Shown: positions 1,239-43,444, counted from the first letter of the stretch. The stretch is 44,606 nucleotides of DNA from a virus (IMGVR_UViG_2711768040_000011:1-44606); one strand, 5' to 3'. A program made the numbers and translations. Notes: a model not told the origin generated them from the sequence alone.

Positions 1239-1256
1239 AATCACCTCACAAAATAA

Positions 1257-18471: not shown

Positions 18472-19476
18472 TCACTCCGACTCGGATTTCCAAGCTTTCC
18501 TCTCTTTCGCCAGTTTCTCAGCCAGCCCCTCATTGAAGATGCTGCCGTCGTCGTTGAGCAGCACTGGGATCTGGCTGCAGTAGCAGTTGTACCGGTTGCC
18601 GTTCTCGGCGTAGAAGTCCCGAATCTCTTCGGTGGTGTAGACCTTGCCGTGGCGGCTGGCATGCCAGGTTCGCGTCGTTGGTTTTAGCGCTGACAACCAC
18701 AGTAGGCCGGTATTCAGCCCCAGCCGGTCAGCAGCCCAGTCGGTTTCGTTCCATTGTGCCTGCCGCAGTGCGCCGACCTGCTCAGTCTGAGCGATGGTCT
18801 TTGCCTTCGACATCGACACATCGAGGCGCTTGCTGATTACGCTGGCCGTCTCGCGAGGGTTCACCCCGCGCGCGACCGCATCGGTGATGATGTTGGTCAG
18901 GTCGCCGCGGGCTGTATCGCTGATGACCTTCCAGTCACTGAACGTTGTCAGCCTTGCCGCTGCCACCTGATTAAGATGACCGGGACTGCTTAAAAGCTGC
19001 TGCAGCGTCGTCTGACTGGCATACACCTGCGACTGTTGCGAGAGGTTATTGAATGCCTCAAGCGTGCCGCGCTGCGCTTCTGCGACGACGTAATCCATCG
19101 CCCAGAGATTTTGCTCGCCACCATCCAGCAGGTAATCGTCGAGAATGGCCTGCACCGCTTCCAGCAGGTCCGCCAGTTCCTGCGCCGACATGTCGTAGAT
19201 GAACTTGCCGGCGTTTACCTGGTAGAGGCGCATATCCGCGCCGTGGTCATGACAAAGGAAGTGCCAGTTATGGCTGTTAACCTCGCGCTCACGCCCGGTA
19301 AGGCGCTGGTCGAACAGAGATTTCAGCGCTCGCTTGATGCCGATATATCGCTTCTCGATATCCCGGAACATCGCGGTTACCTGCTTTGCCGATAGGGTTG
19401 GGTCAACCTTGCTGCGCGGAACTACCGGTGTCCCGACTTTCGTCTTTTGCTCCGGCGTCATCGGAAAGAGGATCAT
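18472..19476 (-). CDS. head morphogenesis protein (SPP1 gp7 / Mu F-like minor capsid protein)
   Basis: 334-aa ORF immediately downstream of portal gene; start may be an internal Met. Confidence 0.7.
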   Translation of the reverse strand: MILFPMTPEQKTKVGTPVVPRSKVDPTLSAKQVTAMFRDIEKRYIGIKRALKSLFDQRLTGREREVNSHNWHFLCHDHGADMRLYQVNAGKFIYDMSAQELADLLEAVQAILDDYLLDGGEQNLWAMDYVVAEAQRGTLEAFNNLSQQSQVYASQTTLQQLLSSPGHLNQVAAARLTTFSDWKVISDTARGDLTNIITDAVARGVNPRETASVISKRLDVSMSKAKTIAQTEQVGALRQAQWNETDWAADRLGLNTGLLWLSALKPTTRTWHASRHGKVYTTEEIRDFYAENGNRYNCYCSQIPVLLNDDGSIFNEGLAEKLAKERKAWKSESE

Positions 19477-20878
19477 CGGTCGTTACCTTTTTATTTGGAT
19501 CAGGCGGCTTAACATCTTCACGCGGCTCAAGTTCTCCCGCTTCCCTGACCTCGTTCTCATCAACAGCAGGTGTGCCGTAGGCTTGCTGGGTATCCTTCGC
19601 CACCGCAGCCATTTCCTTCATGTTGGCAATCTTCTCTTTCTCGCTTGGAGCGAGTAGATCAGACCAGGTTAACGTGATTTCGCCAGATTTAGGTGGTTCG
19701 ATAACCTCCACAGTCCAAAGCCGTTCTATAACTGCACTTGCCCGGTCAGTCTGGAACCCGTTGCGGCGACCATTACAGCGCTTGGCAAAGTCGTTTTTGT
19801 CCTGATCTGAAGCAAGCCTTCCTGTCTGCTGACCAAACAAGATGGTGAATGGCATCTGGACTGAAGATGAAAACTGGTTAGCTGACACTGTCCACGTTGG
19901 ACTCGGATCGGCAGCGGCAACGGAAAGCACTTTAGCCTCTCCGTCCTGCGTCACCAGGGCCGAATCTGTACCAGAGTTAAGCTTCTGGATAGCAGCGTTA
20001 AGCGCCTCAGCCAGCCCCGAGTAACCAGCCTTCTTGGCATCCTCCATGATTTTGTCAATCTTGGTGTCTTTCGACATGTTAATGCCGAGCTGCCTGCTGG
20101 CGTTTTTCAGGAACCCCTCAGCGCTGCCGCCGGAGGTTTTAGCCATATCCAGCAGGTCGTTATAGCCTGCACGCAAGAACGGGATGCCAGCCTGTGAGGA
20201 TTCATCTTCTGAACCCTCGCAAAAAATAATGATGCGCTCAGGATGAATTTTGATTGAGCGCATAGGACCAACAATACTGCCGTTGTCCCCTACAGGTTGC
20301 TCCTGAAAATAATAAAACTTCGGCATGGCGTAATCAGGGGACTTCTGATCCTGCTCTAATTCGCCAGGCTTTACCTGCGATTCCCATGCAGGAATCATCT
20401 TCACCAGGCCACGCTCGCGCGAATTACGCATTACGTCACGATTAACTGGCTCAGACCATTCACGACTATCGGCAAACTGAAGAATTAGGGCTGAGTAGTG
20501 ACCGACAAGGTTACGTCTATCAGCGTCCTTCACCTTGGCCCAGTATTTCTTCATGAGCTTGGTGACTTTCTTTTCCCATGGCGTCGACTTTTTAGACTTC
20601 TTCGTCTCATCGCCGTCGACGATCACCGGGGTATCAGTCCAGCATGCATCGAGCAACTTATGAACAGCACCGAACGCGGCACCGTTGCGCTCATACATGT
20701 TGTAGAAGTGGTCAAAGTCGAGGCGCTCAGGATAGCCAAATTCACACCACAGATGATGTCGCTTGGTGTTGCCTGATTTATTGAAGCCAGCCGCATAAAG
20801 CTGTCGAGATCGCGATACCTCGTTGAGGCTATTCACAATCAGCCCAGCGAGGACTTGCATTTCTGTATCGTTACTCAC
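19403..20878 (-). CDS. portal protein
   Basis: About 490 aa, directly downstream of large terminase, acidic C-terminus; start GTG 20878 or ATG 20860 (ORF open to 20950). Confidence 0.7.
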   Translation of the reverse strand: MSNDTEMQVLAGLIVNSLNEVSRSRQLYAAGFNKSGNTKRHHLWCEFGYPERLDFDHFYNMYERNGAAFGAVHKLLDACWTDTPVIVDGDETKKSKKSTPWEKKVTKLMKKYWAKVKDADRRNLVGHYSALILQFADSREWSEPVNRDVMRNSRERGLVKMIPAWESQVKPGELEQDQKSPDYAMPKFYYFQEQPVGDNGSIVGPMRSIKIHPERIIIFCEGSEDESSQAGIPFLRAGYNDLLDMAKTSGGSAEGFLKNASRQLGINMSKDTKIDKIMEDAKKAGYSGLAEALNAAIQKLNSGTDSALVTQDGEAKVLSVAAADPSPTWTVSANQFSSSVQMPFTILFGQQTGRLASDQDKNDFAKRCNGRRNGFQTDRASAVIERLWTVEVIEPPKSGEITLTWSDLLAPSEKEKIANMKEMAAVAKDTQQAYGTPAVDENEVREAGELEPREDVKPPDPNKKVTTDDPLSDDAGAKDESRDTGSSAQQG

Positions 20879-20888
20879 TGAGTTGTCC

Positions 20889-22451
20889 TTATGTGAAGAA
20901 TATCGCCCCTGAACGGCGAGGTGAGTGCAGCACGCGGTAACGGGTAGCATCCCAGTCGTGGTCTTCCTGCTGGGTATCTACGTCATCCGGGTTTTTGCTG
21001 TCGCGAACCAGCACGGGTATGCGGCTAATCCAGCCACGGCAATGCTCCAACACGTAAAAAGCAGGCTTCTCAGGAATTCCAGATTCCAGCTTCTTACCCT
21101 CAACCACCGCCTCAAGCATGTCGGCGAATACCGAAGCCCCGTTGACTCGAGAGCCTGGCTTCTTATTGGCCTCAAGCCATTCAACACCCTGATTTTCCAT
21201 TTTCTGACCGATCGATAACTCATCGTCGCCAGTGTTGAAAATGGCGCTATCAGCTGGGCCAGGAATAACCTCCGAGCAAATTCCCGGCACAATGTTGAGT
21301 TGGCCCTGCGTGACCCCGTCGATTTGAATCTCTTCCGGCTCGTCGACGTCTTCGCCCACAAGCCGCTTGTCAATCCACGCCACGCCTTTCGCGACGTTGG
21401 TGGATGACATGTTCAGGCCTTTGTTCAGCTCGTCAGGCGGGCAGCCGTACCATTCTCCGATCAGGATTATCGAACCAGCCGGCGGGCAGAACTGTCGACC
21501 ATCTGGCAGCTCGGCGGCAGTGCCGTCAGCTTGGGCCCACCAGAGGTTAGAGAACGGCTTCGACTCACCCCAGTCATGGGAGCGGTCGACGGTCCAACTA
21601 TCCGGTATGCGGAACGGCTTAATGACGTGCAGCGCTTCATTCCACAGGTGGTCAAATCGTCCGCCACTGGTCACATCCCAGGAGCCCTCTACCCAGGCCT
21701 TGCGTCGGTTAGGGTCTTTGATGGCCATCAGGGTCGCGATGTACTGCGGGTCGAGGTACGGGTTTTCTTTAAACGAGCCGTGGATTGCCACGCGGGTCAG
21801 CGTGATTTCCTCTTCTCGCTCAGTCTGAGGGTTGAATACCATTTGCCGGTCGCGCTGTACGGTTCCGCGCGGCGCTGGCTCAATGAAGCGCTTCTTCACC
21901 CAGGTATGCCCGATGCCAAACGGGTTGGTCGTGCTGAATGTCTCTAGCGGGATTGGCCTCAGTAACTTGCCATTCTCCAGCGGGTAGTTTTCCGGCCTGA
22001 ACGATGAACGTCGGCACGAGAACATCATTTCGTAGAATTCCGGGGACTGCTGTTTAGTCAGCTCGTTAAAGCCGATAAACGGGAATTCCTGCCCGTGGAA
22101 ATCCCAGTAGTCGTCTGCCTCTTTGCCGAAGCGGAAGAGAAGTTCCTCGCTTGTGGGCCATACCCATCGCAATTCGCTCGCAGATGACAGATAGCGCGCA
22201 CCGTCGTTGAATAGGCGAAACATACGCTTCGACTGAGTGATGATGTCGGCAAGGTTCTTATATTCGGTGTCGAAAATGACGCCGCGCCAGAACGAGCCAT
22301 AACCCACGCCGACATTACGCCTGAACCTGGCTAACTGCGCAGCTGTCTTGCCCGGTCCGCGAGTGCCCTCGAACAGGATTTCGTTACACGGGCAGCTCAG
22401 CGCCAGGGACTGAGATCCAGGCAGTGGCTTCCATACAGCTTTGTAATTCAT
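20889..22451 (-). CDS. terminase large subunit
   Basis: 520-aa ORF with Walker A-like FEGTRGPGKT and C-terminal nuclease-type acidic motifs. Confidence 0.9.
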   Translation of the reverse strand: MNYKAVWKPLPGSQSLALSCPCNEILFEGTRGPGKTAAQLARFRRNVGVGYGSFWRGVIFDTEYKNLADIITQSKRMFRLFNDGARYLSSASELRWVWPTSEELLFRFGKEADDYWDFHGQEFPFIGFNELTKQQSPEFYEMMFSCRRSSFRPENYPLENGKLLRPIPLETFSTTNPFGIGHTWVKKRFIEPAPRGTVQRDRQMVFNPQTEREEEITLTRVAIHGSFKENPYLDPQYIATLMAIKDPNRRKAWVEGSWDVTSGGRFDHLWNEALHVIKPFRIPDSWTVDRSHDWGESKPFSNLWWAQADGTAAELPDGRQFCPPAGSIILIGEWYGCPPDELNKGLNMSSTNVAKGVAWIDKRLVGEDVDEPEEIQIDGVTQGQLNIVPGICSEVIPGPADSAIFNTGDDELSIGQKMENQGVEWLEANKKPGSRVNGASVFADMLEAVVEGKKLESGIPEKPAFYVLEHCRGWISRIPVLVRDSKNPDDVDTQQEDHDWDATRYRVLHSPRRSGAIFFT

Positions 22452-23098
22452 CCACCGAGCACCCCGTCCTGATGTTTCTGCGCTGCCGCCTCCCAGTCAT
22501 CCACGTTGTCACTGGTTGGCACCAGCATGACGTTATGGGTGACCTCTTTCGTTTCAGCCTTATTCTCGATGCTGTATGCCTCACGCTCGAGGCCGATCAG
22601 CGTCTTTAGGCTGTCGCTCAGGTCTTTCATGGATTTAACGCGGGAAGGCAGGCTGATCACTTTCTGATAAATTTCATTGAGCCGGTCCCGCCCTTTATCG
22701 TCGGGGTCAAACATGATGTCGCCCAACTGCTCGAGCGCGCTTACATCTGCGCACTGCGCACCAAGTTCATCGAATAGCGTGTTGGTCAGTTCACGAGCCC
22801 GGCGGATGTCTCCCCGGTGCTCCATGCGTACCGTGGCAATTACCTCGGCAGTCGCCTCTATCAGTACGCGCTCGGTCAAAGTGCTTTCGTTGCGTACCTG
22901 TTTGCGTACCTCCTGTTTGCGTACCAGATCATCAGCCTTTTGCTGAATCTTCGCATTGAGGTCACGCGACCAGTCGTCACGCTTGGCACGCTTACGGATA
23001 GCGCCTTCGCTAATACCGTGCTGTGAAGCAATTTCTCGGAGGGACATCACTCCGGCCCGGTACGCCGTCTCGATGGCCTCCCAGTCCGGTTTGCTCAT
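22448..23098 (-). CDS. terminase small subunit
   Basis: 216-aa ORF with N-terminal HTH (MSLREIASQHGISEGAIRKRAKRD), overlapping start of large terminase. Confidence 0.7.
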   Translation of the reverse strand: MSKPDWEAIETAYRAGVMSLREIASQHGISEGAIRKRAKRDDWSRDLNAKIQQKADDLVRKQEVRKQVRNESTLTERVLIEATAEVIATVRMEHRGDIRRARELTNTLFDELGAQCADVSALEQLGDIMFDPDDKGRDRLNEIYQKVISLPSRVKSMKDLSDSLKTLIGLEREAYSIENKAETKEVTHNVMLVPTSDNVDDWEAAAQKHQDGVLGG

Positions 23099-23101
23099 TC
23101 G

Positions 23102-23320
23102 TTACTCCGTTGTTTGTCCTGCTGGCTGTTCGGTCTGCTCTGCCGGTACTGGCGTAAACTGCACGCGCTTCACATCGGCCGGAGCGAAATAAAGCCACTC
23201 GCCCGTCTCTGTCGCCAGCGGCACAAAGCCATTAACCAACTCAGGCTGACGTCGTGACATCTTGCCCGTGAAGGTTTCGCCTGTTTGAGTGGTTAGCGTG
23301 ATTTGGTAGATGTCGGACAT
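23102..23320 (-). CDS. small hypothetical protein
   Basis: 72-aa ORF from ATG 23320 with GAGGG SD, directly upstream of terminase small subunit. Confidence 0.45.
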   Translation of the reverse strand: MSDIYQITLTTQTGETFTGKMSRRQPELVNGFVPLATETGEWLYFAPADVKRVQFTPVPAEQTEQPAGQTTE

Positions 23321-23349
23321 GAAGACCCTCACAAGCCACTGTTGAAGAA

Positions 23350-23375
23350 AATGCCATCAGCATGGTGATGGCATT
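23350..23375 (-). terminator. terminator-like hairpin downstream of AT-rich moron
   Basis: 10-bp inverted repeat aatgccatca/tgatggcatt with 6-nt loop, followed by U-rich tract on minus strand. Confidence 0.4.
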
Positions 23376-23397
23376 ACAATTCAATAATATGGCTGTA

Positions 23398-23979
23398 TTA
23401 TTTTGCAGTTTTGTATTCAATAAACCCGTCAAAAATCAGACTATCGATGGTCATCATTTTCGTAAGTTTTTCCATAACCTCAGGATTTTCTTGCATATCA
23501 ACAAGCCATCTCCTCACGCCATTAGCTATATCATTACATAACTCAATAACATCTAATTGCAGAACACCATTAAAAGCATTCATATGTGCATGAAGGTTTT
23601 CTCGCGCAGGGGTCGTTATCTTAAACTTCCTTAGCTTCGTTTCATCAACGCCTTCATGCAAACATGCATTCCTTAAACTCCAACAGTCTTCTGCAGTGAA
23701 TGAGACTACGGGTTTTTGCGCCCTTAAGCTTTGCTTTATTCCTTCAGGCATGCTCTGAACCATTGCAGGGCTGGTGAGACTTAAATAGTCATACATGTTA
23801 TCAGCGTTATATCTTGGCTTAAGATAGCGATTAAACCAGTCCTTGTACCTCGCGCCATTTCCTTTGATTTTATCCTCTGTCGCGCCACAGATGTCAGGAA
23901 GTGATATTGCTATGAATAAAGCACCAAACCAATTCTTTTTAGACAAGCAATCATCTATTCCACTCAGCAACTGTTGCAT
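23398..23979 (-). CDS. AT-rich moron protein with HEPN-like R-x4-H motif (candidate abortive-infection/defence protein)
   Basis: ORF open to 24060 (GTG); ATG 23979 with AAGGTG SD gives 193 aa; AT-rich; contains SLRNACLHEG (R-x4-H). Confidence 0.6.
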   Translation of the reverse strand: MQQLLSGIDDCLSKKNWFGALFIAISLPDICGATEDKIKGNGARYKDWFNRYLKPRYNADNMYDYLSLTSPAMVQSMPEGIKQSLRAQKPVVSFTAEDCWSLRNACLHEGVDETKLRKFKITTPARENLHAHMNAFNGVLQLDVIELCNDIANGVRRWLVDMQENPEVMEKLTKMMTIDSLIFDGFIEYKTAK

Positions 23980-24047
23980 ATATGAGCACCTTATTTTGTT
24001 GTAGACAGAGCCTACAATACAACCAGATGCAACTATTAAGAAAACCT

Positions 24048-24527
24048 TTACTTCAAGCACTGAGTGCTTAGATATTCCTGAAGATAGCCAACCTGCTTCA
24101 TCACTGTGGCGATTCTTTCTCTGAGGGTGAAATAATCCCGTTCAGCGGAGTCAGTAAGTCGGGGGCCGGAAGCATCGCCCATGCCGCTGGAGCCGGTCGT
24201 TCCGTTCGCGGGACAGTTTGCGTTGAGCTGCAGCCGCTTACGGCCAGCAATGACATCGCTATGCAGACGCTCAATGGTTTCTTTCGCATCAGCTAGTTCT
24301 CCGGTGTATTTGGCATCCAGTGCAGCGACATCACGCTGGCGGGCCTGCATGTCTTTTATGGTGGTGTTAGCCAGGCTGAGTTTCTCAGTGGCTTTATCGC
24401 GCTGGTCTTTATAAGCGATGGCGTTGTCGCGGTAGTGGTTAATCGCCCAGGCCATGGAAACGAGCAGGCAGATAACGACAGCACAGATGATTGCTGTTAA
24501 TCGGCTCATTTCTGGCCCCACTCGCAA
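24048..24527 (-). CDS. Rz: i-spanin Rz
   Basis: 159-aa ORF with N-terminal TM, coiled-coil middle, downstream of endolysin, with Rz1 embedded. Confidence 0.8.
24101..24289 (-). CDS. Rz1: o-spanin Rz1 (lipoprotein embedded in Rz in alternate frame)
   Basis: 62-aa [23 protein letters not shown] (lipobox), Pro-rich, entirely inside Rz. Confidence 0.75.
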
Positions 24528-25000
24528 ACTTCGCGCTCAATCTCGCGCCGGGTTATCAGTCCCTTCCACTGCTTGCCACCGGCATACGTCCAGCGTTGCA
24601 GTTCTTTGCATGCCCCCGGCACGTCTCCGGCGTTCAGCTTCTTCAGCAGCGTCGAGCTGGCAAAAGCACCAGAGCCAACGTTATAGGTGAAGGAGTAAAG
24701 CGCGGCGCGGGTTGGCTCAGGAATGCGAACCTTGATCAGCGGGTCGATAGCATTTGCCACCTTTCGCAGATCGGCCTTCAGCATGTTGTCGCACTCTTTG
24801 TCGGTGTATCGGTGACCGCGGCGAATGTCCGCTCCGGTGTGCCCATCGCAAACAGTCCAGACGCCGACCACATCCTGATAGGCGTAATAGCGCCGTCCTT
24901 CCAGCCCATCGGCATTGCCCAGCATTACTGCAGCAATGGTGATGGCTCCGGATCCGCCAACAATGGCACCCACCAGCTTATTCCTCAACGTTGGGTTCAT
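24506..25000 (-). CDS. SAR endolysin (lysozyme, T4/P21 R-like)
   Basis: 164-aa ORF with N-terminal hydrophobic signal-arrest-release segment ([20 protein letters not shown]) followed by lysozyme-like region. Confidence 0.8.
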
Positions 25001-25202
25001 CTCGGCTCCTGCTGCGGCGGTTGTCTTCGCGGATCTTGAAATAGAGATTCGTCAGATACGTCAGTACGGCAATGATGATACCCACCAGCACGCCGATAGC
25101 GTTCCACTGCTCGGGGCTGTAGGCATTAAGCATGCCGTTTAGGATGCTCCCGGCTGAAGCGCCATAGGCAGCACCAGTGGTTATTTTTTCCATGCGATAC
25201 AT
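24978..25202 (-). CDS. holin (pinholin-type, dual-start motif)
   Basis: 74-aa ORF starting MYRM (dual Met starts), TM segments, charged C-terminus; immediately upstream of SAR endolysin. Confidence 0.75.
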
Positions 25203-25302
25203 GCTCTCACCTCGCGTAGTTAGCGGGTGCTGTTCGTGTAGTGGGAAAGGCCGTCAAACACGATAGCTACGGGGCATCTGAAAGTGATTGTCTGCGGCCT
25301 GA

Positions 25303-25327
25303 ATAAAAAACCCGGCGACAGGCCGGG
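25303..25327 (-). terminator. rho-independent terminator in late-operon leader (tR'-like)
   Basis: cccggc-cuguc-gccggg hairpin followed by 8 U on minus strand, between tRNA and holin. Confidence 0.6.
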
Positions 25328-25381
25328 AAGATGAGGGTAAGGCAATGTCGGCTCTACGGCCTATCCCAGCTGGCGGGATTC

Positions 25382-25457
25382 TGGTGCTGATTGACGGAGT
25401 TGAACCGCCGACATCCTGCTTACAAGGCAGGCGCTCTACCTACTGAGCTAAATCAGC
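25382..25457 (-). tRNA. tRNA-Thr (anticodon UGU), phage-encoded
   Basis: 76-nt cloverleaf GCTGATT...AATCAGC-A-CCA: 7-bp acceptor stem, U8, GG in D-loop, anticodon loop CTTGTAA, T-loop TTCAACT, encoded CCA. Confidence 0.8.
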
Positions 25458-25549
25458 CAATAAAAAAGCCCCGCACGATGGCGAGGCTGGTTATTCATTC
25501 ATGTCACACACAACAATGGCAACATATACGAATTATTCTGCTCATTTGT

Positions 25550-26050
25550 TCATTGAAAAGCAAGCACGTTGTGAACATTTTTTGCAACTTTGTTCACATT
25601 ATCGCGGCTGATAAAGGCATTTTGCAGCGGTTGATACAGGCAGAACAGTGCCGCGTTAAGTGTTTCCTTCACCTCCCGGCGTATGGTGGATATGCTCGGG
25701 TGCTTATACTGATTCCCGCCACGCGTCTTCATCACTCGAGGTTTGCTCACAGCGTGCTGCCAGCTGGCGATGCGGATCTCACTGGAGTTGCAGACGTAAT
25801 AGGCGAAGACAACACGCCAGGCGTTCTCGTCGATATTTTTCAGGTAATGGCGCAGCACTGCGTCAATCAGCATACCGTCGTCGTCGCTACATACCGGGCG
25901 AGATGCCTGCTGCGGTTCGACGGTCGCCATAAACTTGGCAATCATGTTGATCATCGCCTTGTCTATCTTCCCGGTCTGCGACCATGCACCCCACAACTGG
26001 AGCCACTGATCAATCCACTGATGCTGCTCGTTGGTTAATTCCAGTTTCAT
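25550..26050 (-). CDS. putative late-gene antiterminator Q
   Basis: 166-aa ORF immediately upstream of tRNA/terminator/lysis genes; N-terminal QWIDQWLQLWGAWS block typical of one Q family. Confidence 0.55.
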   Translation of the reverse strand: MKLELTNEQHQWIDQWLQLWGAWSQTGKIDKAMINMIAKFMATVEPQQASRPVCSDDDGMLIDAVLRHYLKNIDENAWRVVFAYYVCNSSEIRIASWQHAVSKPRVMKTRGGNQYKHPSISTIRREVKETLNAALFCLYQPLQNAFISRDNVNKVAKNVHNVLAFQ

Positions 26051-26162
26051 GCGGCCTCCTTCTTTGGCTGGTTGGTTTTGGTCTGGCTGTGCTTTGCTAT
26101 TGGCGGCAGACTGGCGCGCTTAACGCTTTCGGCCTGGTATCTGGCTATCTGGTCACTGGTCA

Positions 26163-26375
26163 TCAAATCGCCCTCGGCCTAGTTACGCACACAGAAATTC
26201 GGTAATGCTCACCTGCATCAAATACGAATCCTTTTGCGTAAGTGGATAGCCCATCAGATACCGTCTTCCTTGCTAGCCTGTCAGCCGCGTGTTGTGCCTG
26301 CCTCTTGCTCATCCTGATAGCGTTAAAATCGGCGTCCGTCAGCGGGCCACCTATGCCGAAAACTGGCTTTATCAT
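26163..26375 (-). CDS. small hypothetical protein (nin region)
   Basis: 70-aa ORF between NinG and Q, start overlaps NinG stop. Confidence 0.4.
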   Translation of the reverse strand: MIKPVFGIGGPLTDADFNAIRMSKRQAQHAADRLARKTVSDGLSTYAKGFVFDAGEHYRISVCVTRPRAI

Positions 26376-27004
26376 GCTGCCTCCTGTTGACGGGCGCGGC
26401 GCTTCTCCAGCGCGCGGGCTTTACGGGTGAAAATGGATTTGATGCGTTGCAGGTATTGGATGTCGAACCGGCGGACGGAGTTATCGTTGTTTATCGCCTC
26501 AACTTTTTCGGCACCGATGCGCTCGATAAGGCCCTGTTCAAATGCCTTTTGCGCGCCGTCCCGATCCCGGTTGCAATAGACACACTGGGCAGCGGTATTG
26601 TGAAGGTTGAAAGCCAGATGCGCGGCAGCGCCACGGGTGCGATAGTGTCCGCAGTCCATGGTTCCGCCAAACTTCTGCTCTGGCAGCCTGCCGCAGCTGA
26701 TGCACGGCTTACCTGCATCCCTCAGACGGACGTACCGGTTGAATGCCGCCTGCGCTTCCGATCTCCACTGCGGTTTCGTTTTTAGCGCCACCTTTCTCGC
26801 TTTCAGATCCCGGCGTTCCGCGCGCTCTTTCTCTTTGCGCTCCTTGATGCGCTTAGCCGCGGCTTTAACCTTCTCCTTTTCGCGCTCCTCCATCGCGAGG
26901 ATTGCGCCGTGCTCCGGACAGCACCAGCGGATCCGGATGTCGTGGAATTTCGGCACGAAGTATTCACCGCATACTTTGCACTTACGGCGGGATGGTTTAC
27001 GCAT
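26372..27004 (-). CDS. ninG: NinG/Rap recombination protein
   Basis: Start [16 protein letters not shown], multiple Cys pairs and Arg/Lys-rich coiled region as in lambda NinG; ORF open to 27082. Confidence 0.75.
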
Positions 27005-27665
27005 GGGCACCACCTTGAACCTGTACCAGCGTGAGGTTTCCGCAGAACACGGCACCGGTATCGATGTACATCTGGTTGGCATACTTCAGGGGCTGGCGCG
27101 CTGGGGTGTGTCCGAAGATAAACAGATCAGCACCGGATATCGGCGAGACAATGCCGTCCTGAGCGTCGCTAACCCGCTCACGATTCCAGATGACCATTTC
27201 TTTCGGCACTGGCTTATCAAATTCATATTCGTTGTGCGGGTAGTCAGCGTGACAGATGACTATTTTTCGATCGGAGGTAACCAACTCGATGATGAGTGGT
27301 AACTCAGCCGCTTTGTGAACCAGAGCCTTAGCCAGCACTTCTTTGTCATAGTCGAGATTGAAGAACCAACCGCCACCATTTACCAGCCAGTGATTGACGT
27401 TTCCATACTCCGACAGCCCATCAATCATCATCTGCTCATGGTTTCCTCGCACAGCCCGGAGCCAAGGCATAGTAATCAACTCCAGGCACTCGACGTTTTC
27501 CGCGCCGCGGTCAACAAGGTCTCCAACCGAAATCAGCAAATCACACGCAGGGTCGAACGAAACTTTTTCGAGCTCATTCATCAGCAGCGTGTAGCACCCA
27601 TGCAGATCGCCGACGACGAAAATATTGCGCCATTCAGCGCCATTAATGCGTTGATACATGCTCAT
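26997..27665 (-). CDS. ninI: serine/threonine protein phosphatase (lambda NinI-like metallophosphoesterase)
   Basis: GDLHGC, GDLVDRG, GNHE and HADYP metallophosphatase motifs; near-colinear with lambda NinI; start MSMYQ at 27665. Confidence 0.9.
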
Positions 27666-27832
27666 GCAGATTTTCTCCTCGCCGCGAGACGCAGCCATTT
27701 CTGATCCACCAGACGGGCGGTGTAGCCCTTCAGTGTCGGGATGTCGGACGGCTTAACCGCAGGCTTACGCTGGCGGCGCGCAGGAACGCGGAATATTTCG
27801 TTTGTGATGATGCGGGAAAGTGGAGTAGACAT
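27662..27832 (-). CDS. small hypothetical protein (56 aa, NinF-position), not in supplied ORF track
   Basis: Hand-translated [23 protein letters not shown]...; AGGAGG SD; ATGA overlaps with NinB stop and phosphatase start. Confidence 0.45.
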
Positions 27833-28287
27833 CAGGCCTCCTGCTTATCGCGCAGCTGCTGGTATTCACAGCTCTGCGGAATGGTCAGGTGGCAGCCGAT
27901 ATTCATCGCCCAGGCTTCGACCTTGCACAGGAAGATGTACATTTCGCCAGTTTCCAGATCAGACGTATGGCGGAGGGATTGGACGGTGGTGACCTCGCCG
28001 GACACGACGTCTACACGGTCTTTGCTTTCGTAGCCGAGATAGGTGTGCTTCATCGCGTCTTTGACCCACTCAGGCGTAGCGAAGGTCTTGCCGCGGGCGA
28101 TGAGGTACTCGCTGATTTCCGTGTACCACATGTGGCTGAGCGCGTTCTGTGACAGGCTGCGCTTCTCTCGCCACGGCTTAACCTGCAGGCGGAAGCACTG
28201 CCCGGCATCCAGCAATGGCTGAATCTGCTGGCCGATGGCCGCGAAGTTGCCACGATGGAGTTTGATACCGTCTACTGGCAGAGTCAT
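27832..28287 (-). CDS. ninB: NinB recombination protein
   Basis: 151-aa ORF with EKRSLSQNA block resembling lambda NinB; position ahead of nin genes. Confidence 0.7.
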   Translation of the reverse strand: MTLPVDGIKLHRGNFAAIGQQIQPLLDAGQCFRLQVKPWREKRSLSQNALSHMWYTEISEYLIARGKTFATPEWVKDAMKHTYLGYESKDRVDVVSGEVTTVQSLRHTSDLETGEMYIFLCKVEAWAMNIGCHLTIPQSCEYQQLRDKQEA

Positions 28288-28499
28288 ACGGCCTCCTTAA
28301 CGGAAACCGCAGAATGCAGAAAATCGCAGGTGCATTTCTGCATCTGTGACAATGTGAGGAGTTCAGATTGTGGTCGCATTTAAGTCCCCTTAAATGCGCA
28401 GAAGTCACCAATGGGTGTTCAGACCATCAGCAAAGAAAGTATGGACGGTTGATTCAACAAAATCAACTGAAGAGAAAGGCCTCCGGAGAGGCCAATGAG

Positions 28500-28781
28500 T
28501 TAGTCGTCCACGCGTTTAAAGCACTGCGGGCAAACATCATTTCCACCGTGTTCTTCGTATGCGCTTTTAACAGCATCAGTCATCTCTTTAAAGCTTTCGA
28601 ATAGATGACTACCGTTGCTTTTTTTATAAGCTCCGGCTGCGTATTTGTAGATGTCGGACTCTTCTATGCCCTCATCAACATAAGTGCCCTCATGATGAGG
28701 GCACTGCGTTAAAGCGCCAACCCTACCAAGCATCTCCAATGCCCAACACTCTTGTTTCATGCAAAGTTGATCGATACTCAT
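28500..28781 (-). CDS. hypothetical Cys-containing small protein (AT-rich cassette)
   Basis: 93 aa from ATG 28781 with AGGAGG SD; Cys pairs incl. CPQC; AT-rich. Confidence 0.5.
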   Translation of the reverse strand: MSIDQLCMKQECWALEMLGRVGALTQCPHHEGTYVDEGIEESDIYKYAAGAYKKSNGSHLFESFKEMTDAVKSAYEEHGGNDVCPQCFKRVDD

Positions 28782-29047
28782 AACGCCTCCTGTTGGTTTT
28801 ACATCGCCAAATGAATGTACCACCATGCAAGAGGAAATGAAGCAGTTAAATTGTAAAACATGTGTATATATCAATGAGTTAAAATAGTTTGCTATTTTTC
28901 TTACAGCCTTGCTGCGTCGAATGGGTTAGGCATGGCGACCTCTACACGAGCTGAAAATATAAGCCGCTACAGCCAAATCCTGAATTGCTGTTATTGCCAG
29001 CATCCAACCATAAATGCTGTCATTGAAATGCCACGCCAGCGCTGTAA

Positions 29048-29263
29048 TCACGGCTTCACCTCCTTAGCCGTTTTGACGATTGCAGCGAGGCACTTCTTGC
29101 ATGGAACCTGCAATGAACCCTGCTCAATGCTCAACAGTGCATGCTGAGCGTCCTGAAACAACCAGTCAGAAAATTGAGGCTTATGTCCGCACCATGTTTC
29201 TGTTTCATGCTTCGCAAGTTTTACGCCGTCACGATAGTCATATTTGATGATGTGATTACTCAC
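29048..29263 (-). CDS. small hypothetical protein (AT-rich cassette)
   Basis: 71-aa ORF, GTG start with AGGAGG SD, overlaps Lar stop. Confidence 0.45.
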   Translation of the reverse strand: MSNHIIKYDYRDGVKLAKHETETWCGHKPQFSDWLFQDAQHALLSIEQGSLQVPCKKCLAAIVKTAKEVKP

Positions 29264-29559
29264 GGCTGTACCTCCTGCTGCGGTGCTGCAATTAGTTCTA
29301 GCGTGAAGCCGTCTTGCTTAAGACTATCAATGTAAGCCGCAGTTCTCCTGCGCTCGCCAGCACATGCCAGCGTTTCTGGGTCGTAAAACCACACCTTCAT
29401 TCGGCTATTCCATGCAGAAATTGCTTCAGCCTTATTGCGCTTTAATGGCCCATGAGCACCACATTTGCAGTGGACGTAGCGCTTCTTTCCCATAATACTG
29501 AATGAGTAGCCAATACCAAGCGCTGTCGATTCGCAAAATGGGCAGAGTAGTGGAGTCAT
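29260..29559 (-). CDS. lar: Lar-family restriction alleviation protein
   Basis: CPFCES...VHCKCGAHGP...AISAWNSR motif set typical of Lar/RalR family; AGGAGG SD. Confidence 0.7.
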   Translation of the reverse strand: MTPLLCPFCESTALGIGYSFSIMGKKRYVHCKCGAHGPLKRNKAEAISAWNSRMKVWFYDPETLACAGERRRTAAYIDSLKQDGFTLELIAAPQQEVQP

Positions 29560-30260
29560 TTATCCTCCTGCTGAGGTGCTGCTGAAGATGCAAAAATATC
29601 AATCAGCGTATCTTCTCCCATGCTATTGCAATGAGCCTGAAGCCTATTGATGATTGCCTGAAGAGCAAACTTCGGAACCATATTTTCCTTACCTATCTGC
29701 GGGCAGTTTTCGGTACCGAACCAAAATTGCTCGATCTGCAGCAGCAGACCATTTTTGCCTTCAGTTGCACTGAATACGCCGAACGCTTCAATGTCGTATG
29801 CTTTCGCAATCACAGGAGAGTTGCCATCGGCACCCTGAAGCATGGCGGCGCGGCGCTCCCAGTCAGCTATTGCGGCTGAATGTTCCATCGAGTCGTCGCC
29901 AAACTCAGCATGTGCGCACTCGTCTGCCGCATTGGCGGCAGTTTTCGCAATCGTCAAGAGATCTGACAGGAGCGAATCAGATATCGGTGCTGGCGGGGCG
30001 GTGTAAAGCGGCTCACATTCCCAGCCTTGCTTTTGCCAGGATGCCAGGACATTTTTTGAATCTGTCAGAAGGCCGTGATTCTCGTAATAAAGCGATCGCC
30101 ACGCCACAGGATCCGCTTCGAGAGATGCCAGCGCGATACGAAACACCTCTGCAGTCATGCTGCGAGGCGACTGATTGTCATGCGCTGGGTCGGTAAGGAA
30201 GCCAGTAATAAACGCCTTCAATTGCTGATTGTGAATATCGCGTTTGTCGATGTTGCTCAT
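29556..30260 (-). CDS. hypothetical protein
   Basis: ORF start MSNIDKRD (ATG 30260; ORF open to 30275); coupled to neighbours. Confidence 0.5.
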   Translation of the reverse strand: MSNIDKRDIHNQQLKAFITGFLTDPAHDNQSPRSMTAEVFRIALASLEADPVAWRSLYYENHGLLTDSKNVLASWQKQGWECEPLYTAPPAPISDSLLSDLLTIAKTAANAADECAHAEFGDDSMEHSAAIADWERRAAMLQGADGNSPVIAKAYDIEAFGVFSATEGKNGLLLQIEQFWFGTENCPQIGKENMVPKFALQAIINRLQAHCNSMGEDTLIDIFASSAAPQQEDK

Positions 30261-30904
30261 TGGGCGGTCCTCCAACCTTCACATTCAATGTCACTGCAGC
30301 CATCGAAATCGTATGGATTTAGCTGCCAGCTAATCTTTCCGCAGCAAGGGCAATTCCAGCGAACCTTACCGCTGCGTGATTTTTTTCGGTTGTGCTTTTT
30401 CAGCCACTCAGGCATGACAAGCCCTGCCGCCTGAACCATGGTGCGTCGGTTAAACTCATTGATGCTGAACGTGCGGCGCTTAGCCTTGTCAGCTAAAGCA
30501 AAAGGAATCCAGACAATGCCAGGCTCTGCCGTGTTGGCGGATACAAAAACGAATGCCTTACTGAAGTCGTCAGTTGGAAGGCCTCCATGTTGCAACCAGT
30601 ACACATCGTTACCGTTCCAACTGCCTTTTTTGTAGGCCACATAGGACTCACAGCCAGGCTCAATAACACTTTCGGTAGGTATGTACTGACAATCGACATG
30701 CCAGACAGCCATGGAATCAACACTGTCAGCGCAAACCGGCTGATCAATCTCTCTACCCAATTCCCAGCTTCTTTGAGCTTCTTCACGGGTGTACACGTGG
30801 GCGCGGTCTATATTGGAGCTATATCCGTTGCCGTTGTGGCAGTGGAATGACGCGTTACTGCCAACCGTTTCGCGAGTACAAAGCATGTAAAATCTATCGC
30901 TCAT
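30257..30904 (-). CDS. hypothetical protein with C-terminal CPCCG Cys cluster
   Basis: 215-aa ORF, overlapping start/stop with neighbours. Confidence 0.5.
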   Translation of the reverse strand: MSDRFYMLCTRETVGSNASFHCHNGNGYSSNIDRAHVYTREEAQRSWELGREIDQPVCADSVDSMAVWHVDCQYIPTESVIEPGCESYVAYKKGSWNGNDVYWLQHGGLPTDDFSKAFVFVSANTAEPGIVWIPFALADKAKRRTFSINEFNRRTMVQAAGLVMPEWLKKHNRKKSRSGKVRWNCPCCGKISWQLNPYDFDGCSDIECEGWRTAQ

Positions 30905-31335
30905 GACTGCACTCCTTTGCGAAGCTCGTCGGCGAAGTTCTCAGCATCTGCGGCCATGCCAGCAGCCTCTTCAGACATCCTCATGCTTCGGCTACGCAGA
31001 GCCTGCTGTCGTTCTCGCTTATGTGCGGCAAACATCTCCACACCCTGCGCCCGCACTTCAGCCAGGAAAGCGTCGGTGGCTGGGGTTTTGACCTTATTCG
31101 CAGCGAACTCAATTTTTTCTTTCGTGTCTCTGCCGATTTCGCTTGAGCCCAACTTTCCGATGAAGCTAACGATTTGGTCAGGGAACTGCTTCAGCCCCGC
31201 ATTCTCCGCAGCCAGCGCAGCGAATGTGGTTTCAAACACGTTAAGCAGAGTCGTAACTTCTGCCGGTGACATGTGCTCACCACATTCTGCATTCACCCTG
31301 GCGTTTTTAATCAGATCTTCGTATTTGTTGCTCAT
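30901..31335 (-). CDS. hypothetical protein
   Basis: 144 aa from ATG 31335 with GGGGGAGGG SD; the longer ORF to 31692 is a composition-odd extension. Confidence 0.5.
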   Translation of the reverse strand: MSNKYEDLIKNARVNAECGEHMSPAEVTTLLNVFETTFAALAAENAGLKQFPDQIVSFIGKLGSSEIGRDTKEKIEFAANKVKTPATDAFLAEVRAQGVEMFAAHKRERQQALRSRSMRMSEEAAGMAADAENFADELRKGVQS

Positions 31336-31631
31336 ACCCCTACCCTCCCCCAAACCATCAATACTCGCTTCATCGCCGCGCTGTTGCGGCACTCCTGAAA
31401 TATTCCGTTGGTGCAGCTGCGCGCGGTACCATCTTGCTCTTCCGGCGTCGCCAGGCGGTAAGTCACCGTTCGCCAGACCTTGCTCACGCGCACAATCTTC
31501 CTGGCCCGCTCCAGATCGATAGCGTTCTTGGTGATGCAGTTGATGGTCATGACGCACTCTGTGGCCACATCCTTCGCAGTGAAGGTCCGGTGCGTTTCGA
31601 GATAACGCAGAATTGCCTGTTTGCCTTTCAT
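31332..31631 (-). CDS. hypothetical protein
   Basis: 99-aa ORF between helicase and downstream genes, coupled overlaps. Confidence 0.45.
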   Translation of the reverse strand: MKGKQAILRYLETHRTFTAKDVATECVMTINCITKNAIDLERARKIVRVSKVWRTVTYRLATPEEQDGTARSCTNGIFQECRNSAAMKRVLMVWGRVGV

Positions 31632-33067
31632 CAGAAGCCCCCTTTCTTTTTCGGCTGCTGCTCGCGCCCGCGACGTTCTGCGGCGGCGGCATGCTGGTCT
31701 GTGTCGTAAATTGCCCCGTTAATCTGATTGCAATAAACCGTTCCGGTACTGCCGTGGCGGTTGAGTCGCAGGATTAACTCGGTTTCGCCCGGCGGCACGC
31801 TGTCATCGAAAGCACCTTCCCGGTGGATACCAACCCAGTAGTCGCAGTCCTGCTCAATCTGTCCTGTGTCGCGGGAATCACTCGGCAACGGGCGTTTATT
31901 CACTCGCTTCTCCAGTTCGCGGTTGAGCTGAGTCAGCAGCACGACGACGCAGCCAAGCTCTTTGGCCAGGTTCTTCAACCCTTTGGTGATCATCCCGTAG
32001 GCCAGGTCATTACGGTCTGCTTTTTCGGCGGTCATCAGCGTCAGGTAGTCAACCAGAATCATGCCTACGCAGCCTTTCTCGCGCTTAATTCGACGGCATT
32101 CGGTAACGATATGCGCCAGTGACAGGCCAGGAGTGTCGTCGATGTACAGCATGTCGATTTCACTCAGCCGCCCGGCTGTTGCGATCGCCTTCTTAAAGTC
32201 GCCGTCGTAGTCGCCCTGATACTGGTCATCGGCATCATCCGTGGCGGGCATGTAAAAAATGCTCGGGTTAATGCCCGACTTCTGACCAACCAGTTTTTCG
32301 AGGATCTGGTCGCCTGGCATTTCCAGGCTGAACATCAGCGCCGGCTTTTTCTCACGAACCGCGCAGTTGATCGCCATCTGCCCGTACAGGGTTGTTTTGC
32401 CCATTTTTGGCCTTGCGCCAATTACGAACAGAGAGCCTTTAACCAGACCTTTCGGCGCCAGCAGCCGGTCGAGTGACGGGATACCGGTACTCATGCCGCG
32501 CTGTTCGCCTGAGGGGTCAAATCGTTTTTCCAGATCTGCTACCCAGTCATCCATAACCTCGCCGAACGACCGCAACCCACGACGATTTCCGGTTTTTGAA
32601 TGATCTGCGAGCTGGGTGAAGATACCCTGAATGGCCTCATACTTCTGCGTAGCGCTCATACCGTTGCGGGAATACAGCAGCTCAGTAGCTTCGGTCAGAC
32701 GGTTGATACCGTAGCGCTCCATTGCGGCTTCCCGGACTGATTCTGCGTATGCCACGATGTTTGCTGCGCTTGGAGTGTTCTTGGCTATCTCCGCCAGGTA
32801 AGCAAAGCCACCTACCTGCTCCGCGAGCCCTTTTCCTTCAAGCGCGTCGAACAATGTCAGACCATCGACTGGCTTGTTGTCGCGGAACATCTGGCGCATC
32901 TCGGCAAAGATCAGCTGGTGAGGTCGGCTGTAGAACGACTCAGGCTTGAGCATCGCCAGAACCTTCTGGACTCGCTCGCTGTTGTCATCATCCAGCAGCA
33001 GGCCACCGATAACGCTCTGCTCCGCTTCGAGGTTTTGTGGCACAGCCATGAATTCAGCGGTCATCAC
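31631..33067 (-). CDS. replicative DNA helicase (DnaB family)
   Basis: 478-aa ORF with Walker A GARPKMGKTT and DnaB-like helicase blocks; overlaps O-like gene stop. Confidence 0.9.
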   Translation of the reverse strand: MMTAEFMAVPQNLEAEQSVIGGLLLDDDNSERVQKVLAMLKPESFYSRPHQLIFAEMRQMFRDNKPVDGLTLFDALEGKGLAEQVGGFAYLAEIAKNTPSAANIVAYAESVREAAMERYGINRLTEATELLYSRNGMSATQKYEAIQGIFTQLADHSKTGNRRGLRSFGEVMDDWVADLEKRFDPSGEQRGMSTGIPSLDRLLAPKGLVKGSLFVIGARPKMGKTTLYGQMAINCAVREKKPALMFSLEMPGDQILEKLVGQKSGINPSIFYMPATDDADDQYQGDYDGDFKKAIATAGRLSEIDMLYIDDTPGLSLAHIVTECRRIKREKGCVGMILVDYLTLMTAEKADRNDLAYGMITKGLKNLAKELGCVVVLLTQLNRELEKRVNKRPLPSDSRDTGQIEQDCDYWVGIHREGAFDDSVPPGETELILRLNRHGSTGTVYCNQINGAIYDTDQHAAAAERRGREQQPKKKGGF

Positions 33068-33959: not shown

Positions 33960-34185
33960 TCTCCTTACGTTTCAATTCTTCCAGGATGGCGCGCATCTTC
34001 TCTGCCACAATCGGGTTAACCGAGCGGATGAAGCGGTCGCGGGCTATGTTTTTATGTACAGCGGTATGGTAATAGCGTGGATTTTTTGCCATTATTCCTC
34101 CTGCAATGAGTGCACACGATTTGCATCTGAAGGCCAGTTCTGTTCGCGCAGACTGGCTTTCGCCATTTTTGATACTTCCCATCAC
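33946..34185 (-). CDS. small hypothetical protein
   Basis: 79-aa ORF between YdaT-like gene and O-like gene. Confidence 0.4.
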   Translation of the reverse strand: MMGSIKNGESQSARTELAFRCKSCALIAGGIMAKNPRYYHTAVHKNIARDRFIRSVNPIVAEKMRAILEELKRKESGRG

Positions 34186-34724
34186 ATAACCCCCAGCATC
34201 GACGTGACCATCGTCATCAGTGGTCCTACCTGCTCCGGCATGAGGCGGAACAGCGAAGCTATACCCTCGCTTACCTCTTTCAGCTTCTGATGCTCTGGGG
34301 CGTCCAAAAGCACGGCCTGTTTAGCTTCAGCACACTCTTTCATCGCAGAAGCGATCAGCGACATCGTGTCGTTCTGCGGCGCCAGGCGGTTGCGGTACTC
34401 CAGCGGCAATACGGACATGATTGCGGGTGTCAGCTGGCGCACGTTCTCGCGGTACTGTTCGGAGTCGAAACGGTTATCCAGGAAGCGGAACAGCTTCTGG
34501 CGCGCACGGCTGATGTCGTCAGGAAAGCTGATGGCGGTCCCGCCCTGCTCCCGGTATTCGTTGATGATCAGTGCCGAAACGACGTCCTGATTGTCCAGCG
34601 CCGAAGACCATGCCCGGACCGCATCGCGGATCTTTTCGTGGTCAGGCGCCGCCTTAGGTTGAGCGCGGTTTATCATCGCTCCCGGGTGTATTCCGGTATT
34701 GTGTTGATACGCAAGTGAATGCAT
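34182..34724 (-). CDS. YdaT-like protein (functional CII-equivalent family of Rac-type prophages)
   Basis: INEYREQGG and LTPAIMSVLPLEYRNRL blocks resemble Rac YdaT; located directly downstream of Cro-like gene. Confidence 0.6.
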   Translation of the reverse strand: MHSLAYQHNTGIHPGAMINRAQPKAAPDHEKIRDAVRAWSSALDNQDVVSALIINEYREQGGTAISFPDDISRARQKLFRFLDNRFDSEQYRENVRQLTPAIMSVLPLEYRNRLAPQNDTMSLIASAMKECAEAKQAVLLDAPEHQKLKEVSEGIASLFRLMPEQVGPLMTMVTSMLGVM

Positions 34725-34741: not shown

Positions 34742-34975
34742 TTAGGCCGCAGTATCACGCGGCGATGCGAATACCAGGCTTTCTTTTAGGACCGGAGCCT
34801 GGCGGTGAAAATTCTTCGTGCCTTTCTCGATAGCAGATGCCATTTCTGGAGATGCCCGGCGATTTCCGTAGGCGATCTGGTCCAGGTAACCTGGCGTCGT
34901 GTTAGCCAACTTTGCGAGCTGCGCCCATTCGTCGGTAGTGGCGGCCTTGCGCCAGCGGTGTAGTTCAGTGCTCAT
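34742..34975 (-). CDS. Cro-like / YdaS-like HTH regulator
   Basis: 77-aa ORF with HTH (WAQLAKLANTTPGYLDQIAYG), divergent from cI across operator region. Confidence 0.65.
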   Translation of the reverse strand: MSTELHRWRKAATTDEWAQLAKLANTTPGYLDQIAYGNRRASPEMASAIEKGTKNFHRQAPVLKESLVFASPRDTAA

Positions 34976-35007
34976 TGGTGTCTCCGGGTGAGTCGTTTGA
35001 TTTGGAG

Positions 35008-35073
35008 TTTAGCGTTATGCTAAATACTACGCAAGCATCATTTAGCAATTTGCACATTTATCATTTTGCTAAA
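35008..35073. promoter_or_regulatory. OR-like operator cluster (TTTAGC-N5-GCTAAA palindromes) with divergent promoters
   Basis: TTTAGCgttatGCTAAA at 35008-35024, TTTATCattttGCTAAA at 35057-35073, weaker site at 35041-35057. Confidence 0.5.
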
Positions 35074-35091
35074 AGCAGTAACAATGCAGGT

Positions 35092-35769
35092 ATGGAAAAT
35101 AAAGAAATCAGAAAAGCCAACCTGGAAGCGCTGTACGAGAAGCGTCAGCACGAGTCTGGAATGACCAAAGCGCAGTTTGCCGAGCTCATCGAGACAAGTC
35201 CGGCTGCGCTTAGCCAGCTACTGGGACCAAACCCTCATCGCAATATCGGCGATAAGATGGCTCGCAAAATTGAAACTGCGCTTGATCTGCCTTTTGGCTG
35301 GATGGATGTTTTACACGCCAGTGAAGAACCTTCGAACGTTGCATTTCGAGGACTGAACGAGACAAAAGGAAGTTATCCTGTAATCAGCTGGGTAAGCGCG
35401 GGGCAATGGATGGAAGCTGTAGAACCTTATCACCGAAGAGCGATAGATCGCTGGTATGACACGACTGTTGACTGCTCAGAAGATTCATTCTGGCTGGACG
35501 TTAAAGGGGATTCTATGACCTCCCCGGCTGGACTGAGCATACCCGAGGGAGCAGCGATACTTGTTGATCCTGAAGTCGAGCCGCGCAACGGAAAGCTGGT
35601 TGTCGCGAAGCTAGAAGGCGATAACGAAGCGACCTTTAAGAAGCTTGTAATCGATGCCGGCAGACGCTTCCTAAAGCCCCTTAACCCCGCATATCCAATG
35701 CTAGAAATTAATGGAAACTGCAAAATCATCGGCGTTGTGGTTGATGCCAAAATACTAAACATCCCATAA
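35092..35769 (+). CDS. cI: CI-type prophage repressor (HTH + LexA-like S24 autopeptidase)
   Basis: N-terminal HTH, Ala-Gly cleavage site (SAGQW), GDSM Ser and FKKL Lys motifs; ATG 35092 (ORF open from 34975). Confidence 0.9.
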   Translation: MENKEIRKANLEALYEKRQHESGMTKAQFAELIETSPAALSQLLGPNPHRNIGDKMARKIETALDLPFGWMDVLHASEEPSNVAFRGLNETKGSYPVISWVSAGQWMEAVEPYHRRAIDRWYDTTVDCSEDSFWLDVKGDSMTSPAGLSIPEGAAILVDPEVEPRNGKLVVAKLEGDNEATFKKLVIDAGRRFLKPLNPAYPMLEINGNCKIIGVVVDAKILNIP

Positions 35770-41922: not shown

Positions 41923-42012
41923 ACAGCATCAGCGCATCGCCGTGTGGCGGGTGACATCCCGCCAAATAACGACGATCAACTGAACATCAACACATTATAT
42001 GTACATACGACC

Positions 42013-43228: not shown

Positions 43229-43444
43229 ATGAATGACAGCATCCTGGTTACAAGCGAAATCCTTGCGCGCTACAAAATATCGCGCAGCACGCTCTATTTC
43301 TGGAGCACTCCCGCACGTATGCCATCCAGCTTTTCATGCCCATTCCCGAAACCAACCATCCCCGGAAATCCGAAGCGCTGGCGTGAGTCAGAAATCAAGT
43401 CATGGGAAGACAAGGTCAACTTTGCTAAAGGGGATACCCAATAA
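43229..43444 (+). CDS. alpA: AlpA-family phage regulatory protein / excisionase
   Basis: 71-aa ORF MNDSILVTSEILARYKISRSTLYFW (AlpA-type HTH), GGAGA SD, adjacent to integrase. Confidence 0.7.
   Translation: MNDSILVTSEILARYKISRSTLYFWSTPARMPSSFSCPFPKPTIPGNPKRWRESEIKSWEDKVNFAKGDTQ

Follow-up and report, generated by a model that had tools for sequence, protein, structure and literature searches.

The 44,606-nt stretch of viral DNA analysed here (IMGVR_UViG_2711768040_000011:1-44606, referred to throughout as the window) is a lambdoid prophage, and directly after the stop codon of its lysis gene Rz, in late-operon orientation, a cassette is inserted that is exchangeable and compositionally foreign. 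The cassette encodes a protein of 193 aa, which is predicted to have a HEPN-like fold with conserved and correctly placed catalytic-type residues, and members of its family, phrog_18591, recur at prophage cargo sites with no conserved partner. We give about even weight to the reading that the cassette is a single-gene accessory function and its product a solo HEPN RNase for phage exclusion. HEPN RNases are already established as prophage-borne abortive-infection effectors; the family itself is uncurated and fairly large, and its own features are a beta-hairpin, a set of Cys and His residues and the late-operon slot.

An exchangeable single-gene cassette after Rz

The features of the cassette and of its open reading frame (ORF) are as follows, in window positions:

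23323-24049, minus strand: low-GC exchangeable cassette of 727 bp, delimited by composition and homology breakpoints
23398-23979, minus strand: HEPN-like ORF of 193 aa, phrog_18591 (WP_047658998.1 in E. coli 23CRST004)
23987-23992, minus strand: Shine-Dalgarno sequence AAGGTG, 7 nt 5' of the ATG at 23979, read from the sequence
23893-23895, minus strand: codon of D29, within P28-D29-I-C31; candidate HEPN helix-2 acidic residue
23656-23673, minus strand: codons of R103-N-A-C-L-H108; predicted catalytic Rx4H motif, based on conservation and helix position
23350-23375, minus strand: terminator-like hairpin, an inverted repeat with a perfect stem of 10 bp and a loop of 6 nt, followed by the short U-rich tail UUCUUC

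The cassette is bounded on one side by the Rz stop codon (24048), one base past which it begins, and on the other by the start of a conserved ORF of 72-76 aa, and it holds a single ORF on the minus strand. Its G+C content (GC) is 0.392, against 0.559 in both flanks, in agreement with the AT-richness claimed in an earlier reading of this DNA (the sequence-only reading). In the ORF, GC is 0.395 and GC at third codon positions (GC3) 0.39, as compared to 0.54-0.58 and 0.59-0.67, respectively, in the neighbouring genes. Only 0.2% of all 727-bp windows in the 44.6-kb stretch are as AT-rich as the cassette, and the sole other island of this kind is the gene of an acyltransferase, close to the tail spike.

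Breakpoints were located by comparing the window, with BLAST, to three E. coli prophages that share its flanks (XJ5.2, M37H and AST215). For XJ5.2 and AST215, homology ends at window positions 23322 and 23357 and restarts at 24050 and 24052, respectively; for M37H, it ends at 23330 and restarts only at 24388, owing to a different lysis gene in that prophage. In all three, the slot is filled by unrelated genes of ~66-69 aa, and the downstream 72-76-aa ORF is kept in the E. coli prophages compared, with or without the cassette. The homology breakpoints thus define 23323-24049 as an exchangeable cassette. Among 5,426 complete E. coli genomes, one carries it; the exact protein is found on 384 public contigs, with a label that is always hypothetical. 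The prophage of E. coli 23CRST004 is near-identical to the window (99.6-99.7% over positions 18502-28409), with ~700 bp of extra DNA between the small terminase subunit gene, TerS, and the 72-aa ORF (window 23093-23137; positions 19086-19805 of the 23CRST004 locus, L001). This DNA encodes an opposite-strand hypothetical ORF of 170 aa (WP_095907981.1) and thus marks a second variable slot, one gene from the HEPN-like cassette.

The minus-strand ORF can be read either from a GTG (23398-24060, 220 aa) or from an ATG (23398-23979, 193 aa), and the ATG is the true start. All 25 close homologues are 188-195 aa long and share the same first Met, the RefSeq annotation is the 193-aa form, and the position of the AAGGTG supports this start. 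The GTG start was ruled out, as it overlaps Rz, yields a hydrophobic extension seen in no homologue, and competes with an ATG that has a good ribosome-binding site. Of the low-GC ORF of 193-220 aa that had been proposed, the low GC and the shorter form are therefore retained, but not the 220-aa form.

The hairpin at 23350-23375 lies 22 nt past the stop codon of the HEPN-like ORF, with a folding free energy of -12.8 kcal/mol and a fold z-score of -2.85 for the 81-nt region around it. It fell below the threshold of a rule-based terminator scan, which made no call there. The inverted repeat previously described as a terminator is thus present and perfect over 10 bp, but from its sequence it is a plausible terminator rather than a called one.

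In the literature comparing HK97 and HK022, a moron is an extra gene unit of a phage late operon that some phages have and close relatives lack at the equivalent site; it deviates in base composition and is preceded by a promoter of its own and followed by a terminator. The sequence-only reading had assigned the element to this class. Its exchangeability and foreign composition (0.39 against 0.56) fit the assignment, but the coding strand yielded no sigma-70-like promoter and the downstream hairpin is only terminator-like.

Predicted fold and conserved residues of the 193-aa protein

Structure prediction with AlphaFold2, a check suggested along with the sequence-only reading, returned a HEPN-like fold (predicted local distance difference test score, pLDDT, 86; predicted template modelling score, pTM, 0.82). 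The model starts with helices 2-13 and 17-35, followed by a helical insert (41-95) and a helix (96-106) that has R103 in its last turn and H108 in the next loop; a beta-hairpin (119-143), which includes H132, and two further helices (144-162 and 166-180) complete the chain. A Foldseek search of the model against the PDB gave no significant match. The ranked fold list includes YutE, ST0689, the sacsin HEPN domain, Las1, Csm6 and 4nqf, with the C-terminal domain of VP30 at rank 7, and HI0074, AbiA, LsoA, AbiV and others lower down. In a fold search of BFVD, only two matches were obtained, both uncharacterised phage relatives.

In HEPN domains, the Rx4-6H motif is located where helix 3 ends or the loop after it begins, helices 2 and 3 are typically separated by inserts, the conserved R is usually followed directly by a polar residue (N, D or H), and a conserved acidic residue lies in helix 2, near the motif (PMC3710099). 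The position of R103 at the end of the predicted helix 96-106 and of H108 in the loop after it, and the long insert (residues 54-95) ahead of that helix, match this helix 3 and the helix 2-3 insert. D29 lies within the predicted helix 17-35 and outside any Ex3[KR] motif.

The motif SLRNACLHEG, on which the assignment to HEPN had originally been based, is present and contains R103 and H108. As evidence by itself it was dropped, because Rx4H occurs in 13 of the 34 long ORFs of the window (Rx4-6H in 21 of 34). With the motif this common by chance, the weight lies on its near-invariance and structural position, and with these two the assignment is supported where the motif alone, as the sequence-only reading itself acknowledged, would not justify it. 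Conservation was counted over 119 diverse family members with 25-65% identity to the query. R103, H108, P28 and D29 are each kept in 118/119, W48 and W158 in 116/119 each, C31 in 114/119, H132 in 113/119 and C148 in 108/119. In this protein and its enterobacterial subfamily, R103 is followed by N104. Besides Rx4H, the family keeps a set of Cys and His residues (C31, C99, C106, which is C104 in most relatives, H132 and C148); judging from the sequences, this set could be a metal-binding or redox-sensing site.

The phrog_18591 family and its genomic settings

The 193-aa protein matches phrog_18591 in PHROGs, a family of unknown function. Searches of Pfam, NCBIfam and PADLOC (PADLOC-DB v2.0.0) with this protein gave no match; no Pfam HEPN family was found in the query, the 119 relatives or four distant phage homologues, and no relevant Pfam domain in any of the 119 sampled members. 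To size the family, cluster representatives at 50% identity were searched exhaustively with HMMER and a profile of 19 sequences; 1,896 representatives scored E<=1e-3, of which 761 reached E<=1e-10. Among the 150 top-scoring members listed, most are single-domain proteins of 155-210 aa. Among longer members, the fusion partners have no Pfam domain in nine of ten cases and TPR repeats in one. All source names seen for family members are 'hypothetical protein'.

Hosts and phages with family members include Enterobacteriaceae prophages and phages of Acinetobacter, Bacillus (SPbeta-like), Gordonia (Bowser gp32) and Arthrobacter, and the member genomes include Methylomonas, Nitrospira, Qipengyuania and Aeromonas. 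In Escherichia phage ECP1, a homologue of 34% identity follows the lysis genes (positions 4001-4474 of locus L002; KY979108.1, 8614-9087), at a position where the GenBank record KY979108.1 has no annotated gene.

The other landmarks of the prophage are:

43425-44606, minus strand: integrase, adjoining a TnpB/IS605 gene
34975-35769: CI-like S24 repressor
25550-26050: Q
24048-25202: holin, lysozyme and Rz, after Q
24048-24527: Rz (PF03245, E 1e-42)
23102-23332: conserved small ORF of 72-76 aa between cassette and TerS (phrog_6581)
22448-23098: TerS (phrog_1206)
20889-22451: large terminase subunit, TerL

Co-oriented with the late operon and embedded in it, the HEPN-like gene begins 68 bp after Rz and lies just ahead of the 72-76-aa ORF and the terminase. 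Its placement between Rz and TerS had been recognised correctly, save for the one small gene (23102-23332, phrog_6581) in between.

In Klebsiella and Raoultella, homologues of 61% identity also lie directly after Rz, in prophages with a different packaging module, of HK97-type HNH/Terminase_4. In E. cancerogenus and phage ECP1 the gene is likewise found after the lysis genes, with differing neighbours. Elsewhere, family genes are located upstream of the terminase (Arthrobacter prophage), beside an integrase (Qipengyuania; Acinetobacter phage TCUAN1), on the integrase-side strand (Gordonia phage Bowser) or within an island that also carries Fic and NERD genes (Aeromonas).

No conserved neighbour gene was found among the loci compared, and no nucleotidyltransferase family, as would mark a minimal nucleotidyltransferase (MNT) antitoxin, beside the gene in any of 11 homologous loci with Pfam annotations, the phage records being checked by annotation only. 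A partner or antitoxin gene was ruled out, since neighbours vary and the downstream ORF also occurs without the HEPN-like gene, which argues against its being a dedicated antitoxin or partner.

Several further loci of the prophage are of note. The second low-GC island (1100-2655, plus strand, GC ~0.40) holds an Acyl_transf_3 ORF (1495-2655) and looks like an O-antigen-modifying cargo gene; the adjoining gene (2618-4570, minus strand) encodes a tail-spike protein that has a sialate-O-acetylesterase-like (SASA) domain. An ORF of the YdaT toxin family (34182-34724, minus strand) is found next to the immunity region and close to the CI-like repressor, and a TnpB/IS605 OrfB-like gene with a Cas12f1-like TNB domain (41944-43104, plus strand) just inside the prophage end, beside the integrase. 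A block of the nin region (window 28410-31368) differs from its 23CRST004 counterpart (L001 25078-28602): in the latter, an 'Abi family protein' is annotated (L001 26073-26969), in place of which the window has ORFs at 29556-30275, 30257-30904 and 30901-31692, none of them with a Pfam match.

Known HEPN systems and the proposed function of the cassette

HEPN enzymes are metal-independent endoRNases with a composite active site formed by dimerisation (PMC3710099). The closest functional parallel is HepS (STM14_3211) of the Salmonella prophage Gifsy-1, a solo HEPN abortive-infection anticodon nuclease (PMC13043305; PDB 9OIJ/9OIK). It has the residues R100, N101 and H105, needs no partner, is tetrameric and, while at rest, not toxic (PMC13043305); its trigger is the siphovirus tail-tip protein J, upon which it cuts the anticodon loops of tRNA-Thr, tRNA-Ile and tRNA-Ser, and Gifsy-1 escapes it by having a variant J protein (PMC13043305). 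Like HepS, the 193-aa protein is a stand-alone protein of less than 250 aa with one HEPN-type domain, has R-N-x3-H at nearly the same position (R103/H108 and R100/H105), and is encoded in an accessory slot of an Enterobacteriaceae lambdoid prophage with no conserved partner or inhibitor gene; the relatives of both span Bacillus-type to enterobacterial hosts. The two differ in that no sequence kinship is detectable between them, as judged by an indirect test in which the family profiles A1 and A2 were run against the PDB copy with the 9OIK peptide chain (E<=10). By an R100/H105 fingerprint and an RN...H.I search, no HepS was found in LT2 Gifsy-1 (NC_010392) or in the Salmonella phages SW-37, FSL SP-016 and SPN3UB.

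Between Q and holin, the window has a tRNA-Thr(UGU) gene (25382-25457, minus strand). In Klebsiella (L006 and L007) and E. cancerogenus (L010), prophages with the HEPN-like gene likewise have this kind of tRNA after Q, and the same tRNA is present in the AST215 prophage (L018), which lacks that gene. The prophage tRNA has the anticodon loop of host thrU and deviates from it in the stem only. A link between this tRNA and the HEPN-like gene, considered because HepS targets tRNA-Thr, is unsupported, given the occurrence in AST215 and the host-identical loop.

Mycobacteriophage Butters gp57r is a prophage-expressed HEPN-motif defence protein, which is non-toxic and whose escape mutants map to tail genes (bioRxiv 10.1101/2023.01.03.522681). 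It resembles the 193-aa protein as a solo prophage protein of ~190 aa with Rx4H (RDRCAH) near residue 95, yet it lies outside phrog_18591, and hhalign against the family profile gave a probability of 0.1%. Comparison of the family profile with a single DUF4145 and a single Abi-family sequence by hhalign was uninformative. Unlike the HEPN/MNT toxins (PDB 7ae2, 8xdj and 5yep, SO_3166), the 193-aa protein has no adjacent MNT gene. Relative to these toxins and to minimal HEPN domains (2hsb, 1wol, 1ylm and 1jog), it is 50-70 residues longer, owing its additional length to a helical insert (54-95), the beta-hairpin at 119-143 and a further helix at the C terminus, and it has no Pfam HEPN or DUF86 match. 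In contrast to Csx1/Csm6 HEPN proteins of type III CRISPR systems (PDB 8y7f, 6r9r and 8jbc), it is a single domain with neither a CARF sensor nor a CRISPR context. It also differs from the lactococcal single-protein HEPN abortive-infection factors AbiV and AbiD/AbiF (Abi_2) in matching neither Pfam Abi_2 nor AbiV; AbiV typically has no H in its motif (PMC3710099), whereas phrog_18591 keeps it.

The predicted HEPN fold together with the conserved Arg and His makes the product probably a one-protein phage-exclusion nuclease. As such, it would be a latent, stand-alone and metal-independent HEPN endoribonuclease, in which, if it works as other HEPN enzymes do, a composite active site would arise from the R103-N104-x3-H108 motifs of two paired protomers, and D29 on helix 2 would assist. 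The enzyme would be silent until it receives a cue from an infecting phage, and would then cut tRNA or mRNA, so that translation stops and the infection is aborted; the aborted infection is proposed to protect the lysogen population and hence the prophage. RNase activity, oligomerisation, latency and triggering, RNA target, defence phenotype and lysogen expression are all points that we infer.

Several observations weigh against this reading. The overlay of R103 and H108 on known catalytic residues is deduced only from secondary-structure position in the predicted model, and the residue after R, which is usually N, D or H in HEPN domains, is atypically Cys in 101/119 members and Asn in 17/119. 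No curated HEPN model was matched in Pfam, NCBIfam or PADLOC, and sequence searches of the PDB with the two family profiles, A1 and A2, gave nothing at E<=10. The Methylomonas member lies in a neighbourhood that is neither phage nor defence. Finally, a scan for sigma-70-like promoters found none on the coding strand upstream of the gene in the window, and none on the coding strand at the loci of Klebsiella and E. cancerogenus. The HEPN-like gene, lying as it does within the late operon, may be made in lytic growth only, which would be a worse fit to a role in lysogen defence.

We consider it improbable, although less so than the further alternatives, that the product is an RNase serving the phage's own lytic cycle, expressed late and only from the Q-antiterminated late promoter, with no protection of the lysogen; possible roles would be to degrade host or competitor RNA, or to counter host defence, during the burst. 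Besides the promoter scans, the late-operon orientation, the location 68 bp past Rz and just ahead of the 72-76-aa ORF and terminase, and the recurrence of the post-Rz position across several prophage lineages are in line with this. However, real promoters in AT-rich DNA are often missed by consensus scans, and the gene is dispensable, given the unrelated small genes in the slot of close prophages and its presence in a single one of the E. coli genomes searched. Moreover, distant members beside integrases or on the lysogeny-side strand are placed in a manner typical of lysogen-expressed cargo, and a general RNase made late would damage virion production.

Alternatively, the protein might share the HEPN-like helical fold without being a nuclease, as a binding, regulatory or structural protein or as a Cys/His metal or redox enzyme, with R and H in a non-catalytic role. 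Several HEPN families are indeed non-catalytic, substrate-binding domains (PMC3710099), four Cys and a second His are near-invariant here, Cys follows R in most members, and nothing ties the family to any HEPN family at sequence level. Against this, non-catalytic HEPN families characteristically lose Rx4-6H (PMC3710099), while here R and H are kept in all but one of the 119 members each, and the placement of the motif is exactly that seen in catalytic HEPN domains; we regard a non-nuclease as quite improbable. It is very unlikely that the prophage is stabilised by a toxin-antitoxin or addiction module in which this protein is the toxin and the neighbouring small ORF or an antisense RNA the antitoxin: a small ORF does follow directly (23102-23332) and two opposite-strand promoter-like sites (23351-23401) are aimed into the 3' end of the gene, but these sites are at chance level (2 observed, 2.1 expected), there is no MNT or other conserved neighbour, the downstream ORF is also present in prophages without the HEPN-like gene, and the solo HEPN protein HepS needs no antitoxin.

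A broader form of the phage-exclusion reading, which we hold as tentative and rather doubtful, is that phrog_18591 is a large uncurated HEPN branch of self-contained sensor-effector immune RNases, with its own regulatory hardware in the beta-hairpin insert and in a conserved Cys/His site beside Rx4H, and with a new trigger and RNA target. The family, with its ~1,900 clusters, spans Proteobacteria, Actinobacteria, phages of Firmicutes, Nitrospira and Armatimonadetes. If this were true, the position of the gene inside the late operon would imply that the prophage tolerates or exploits its own nuclease at induction, as Gifsy-1 evades HepS.

That HEPN defences of prophages consisting of one protein can sense structural proteins of phages and cleave tRNAs is a recent finding (HepS, Nature 2026). 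The locus described here points to a second solo HEPN-like family, which is widespread and has no detectable sequence kinship to HepS. Should expression prove to be late only, the question would be why a latent RNase resides in the phage's own late operon. If the product is a defence nuclease, it would offer a testable system with clear mutants (R103, H108, D29 and H132), and the post-Rz slot of lambdoid prophages would be worth searching for further cargo of this sort in E. coli, Klebsiella and Enterobacter, hosts that are relevant to phage therapy.
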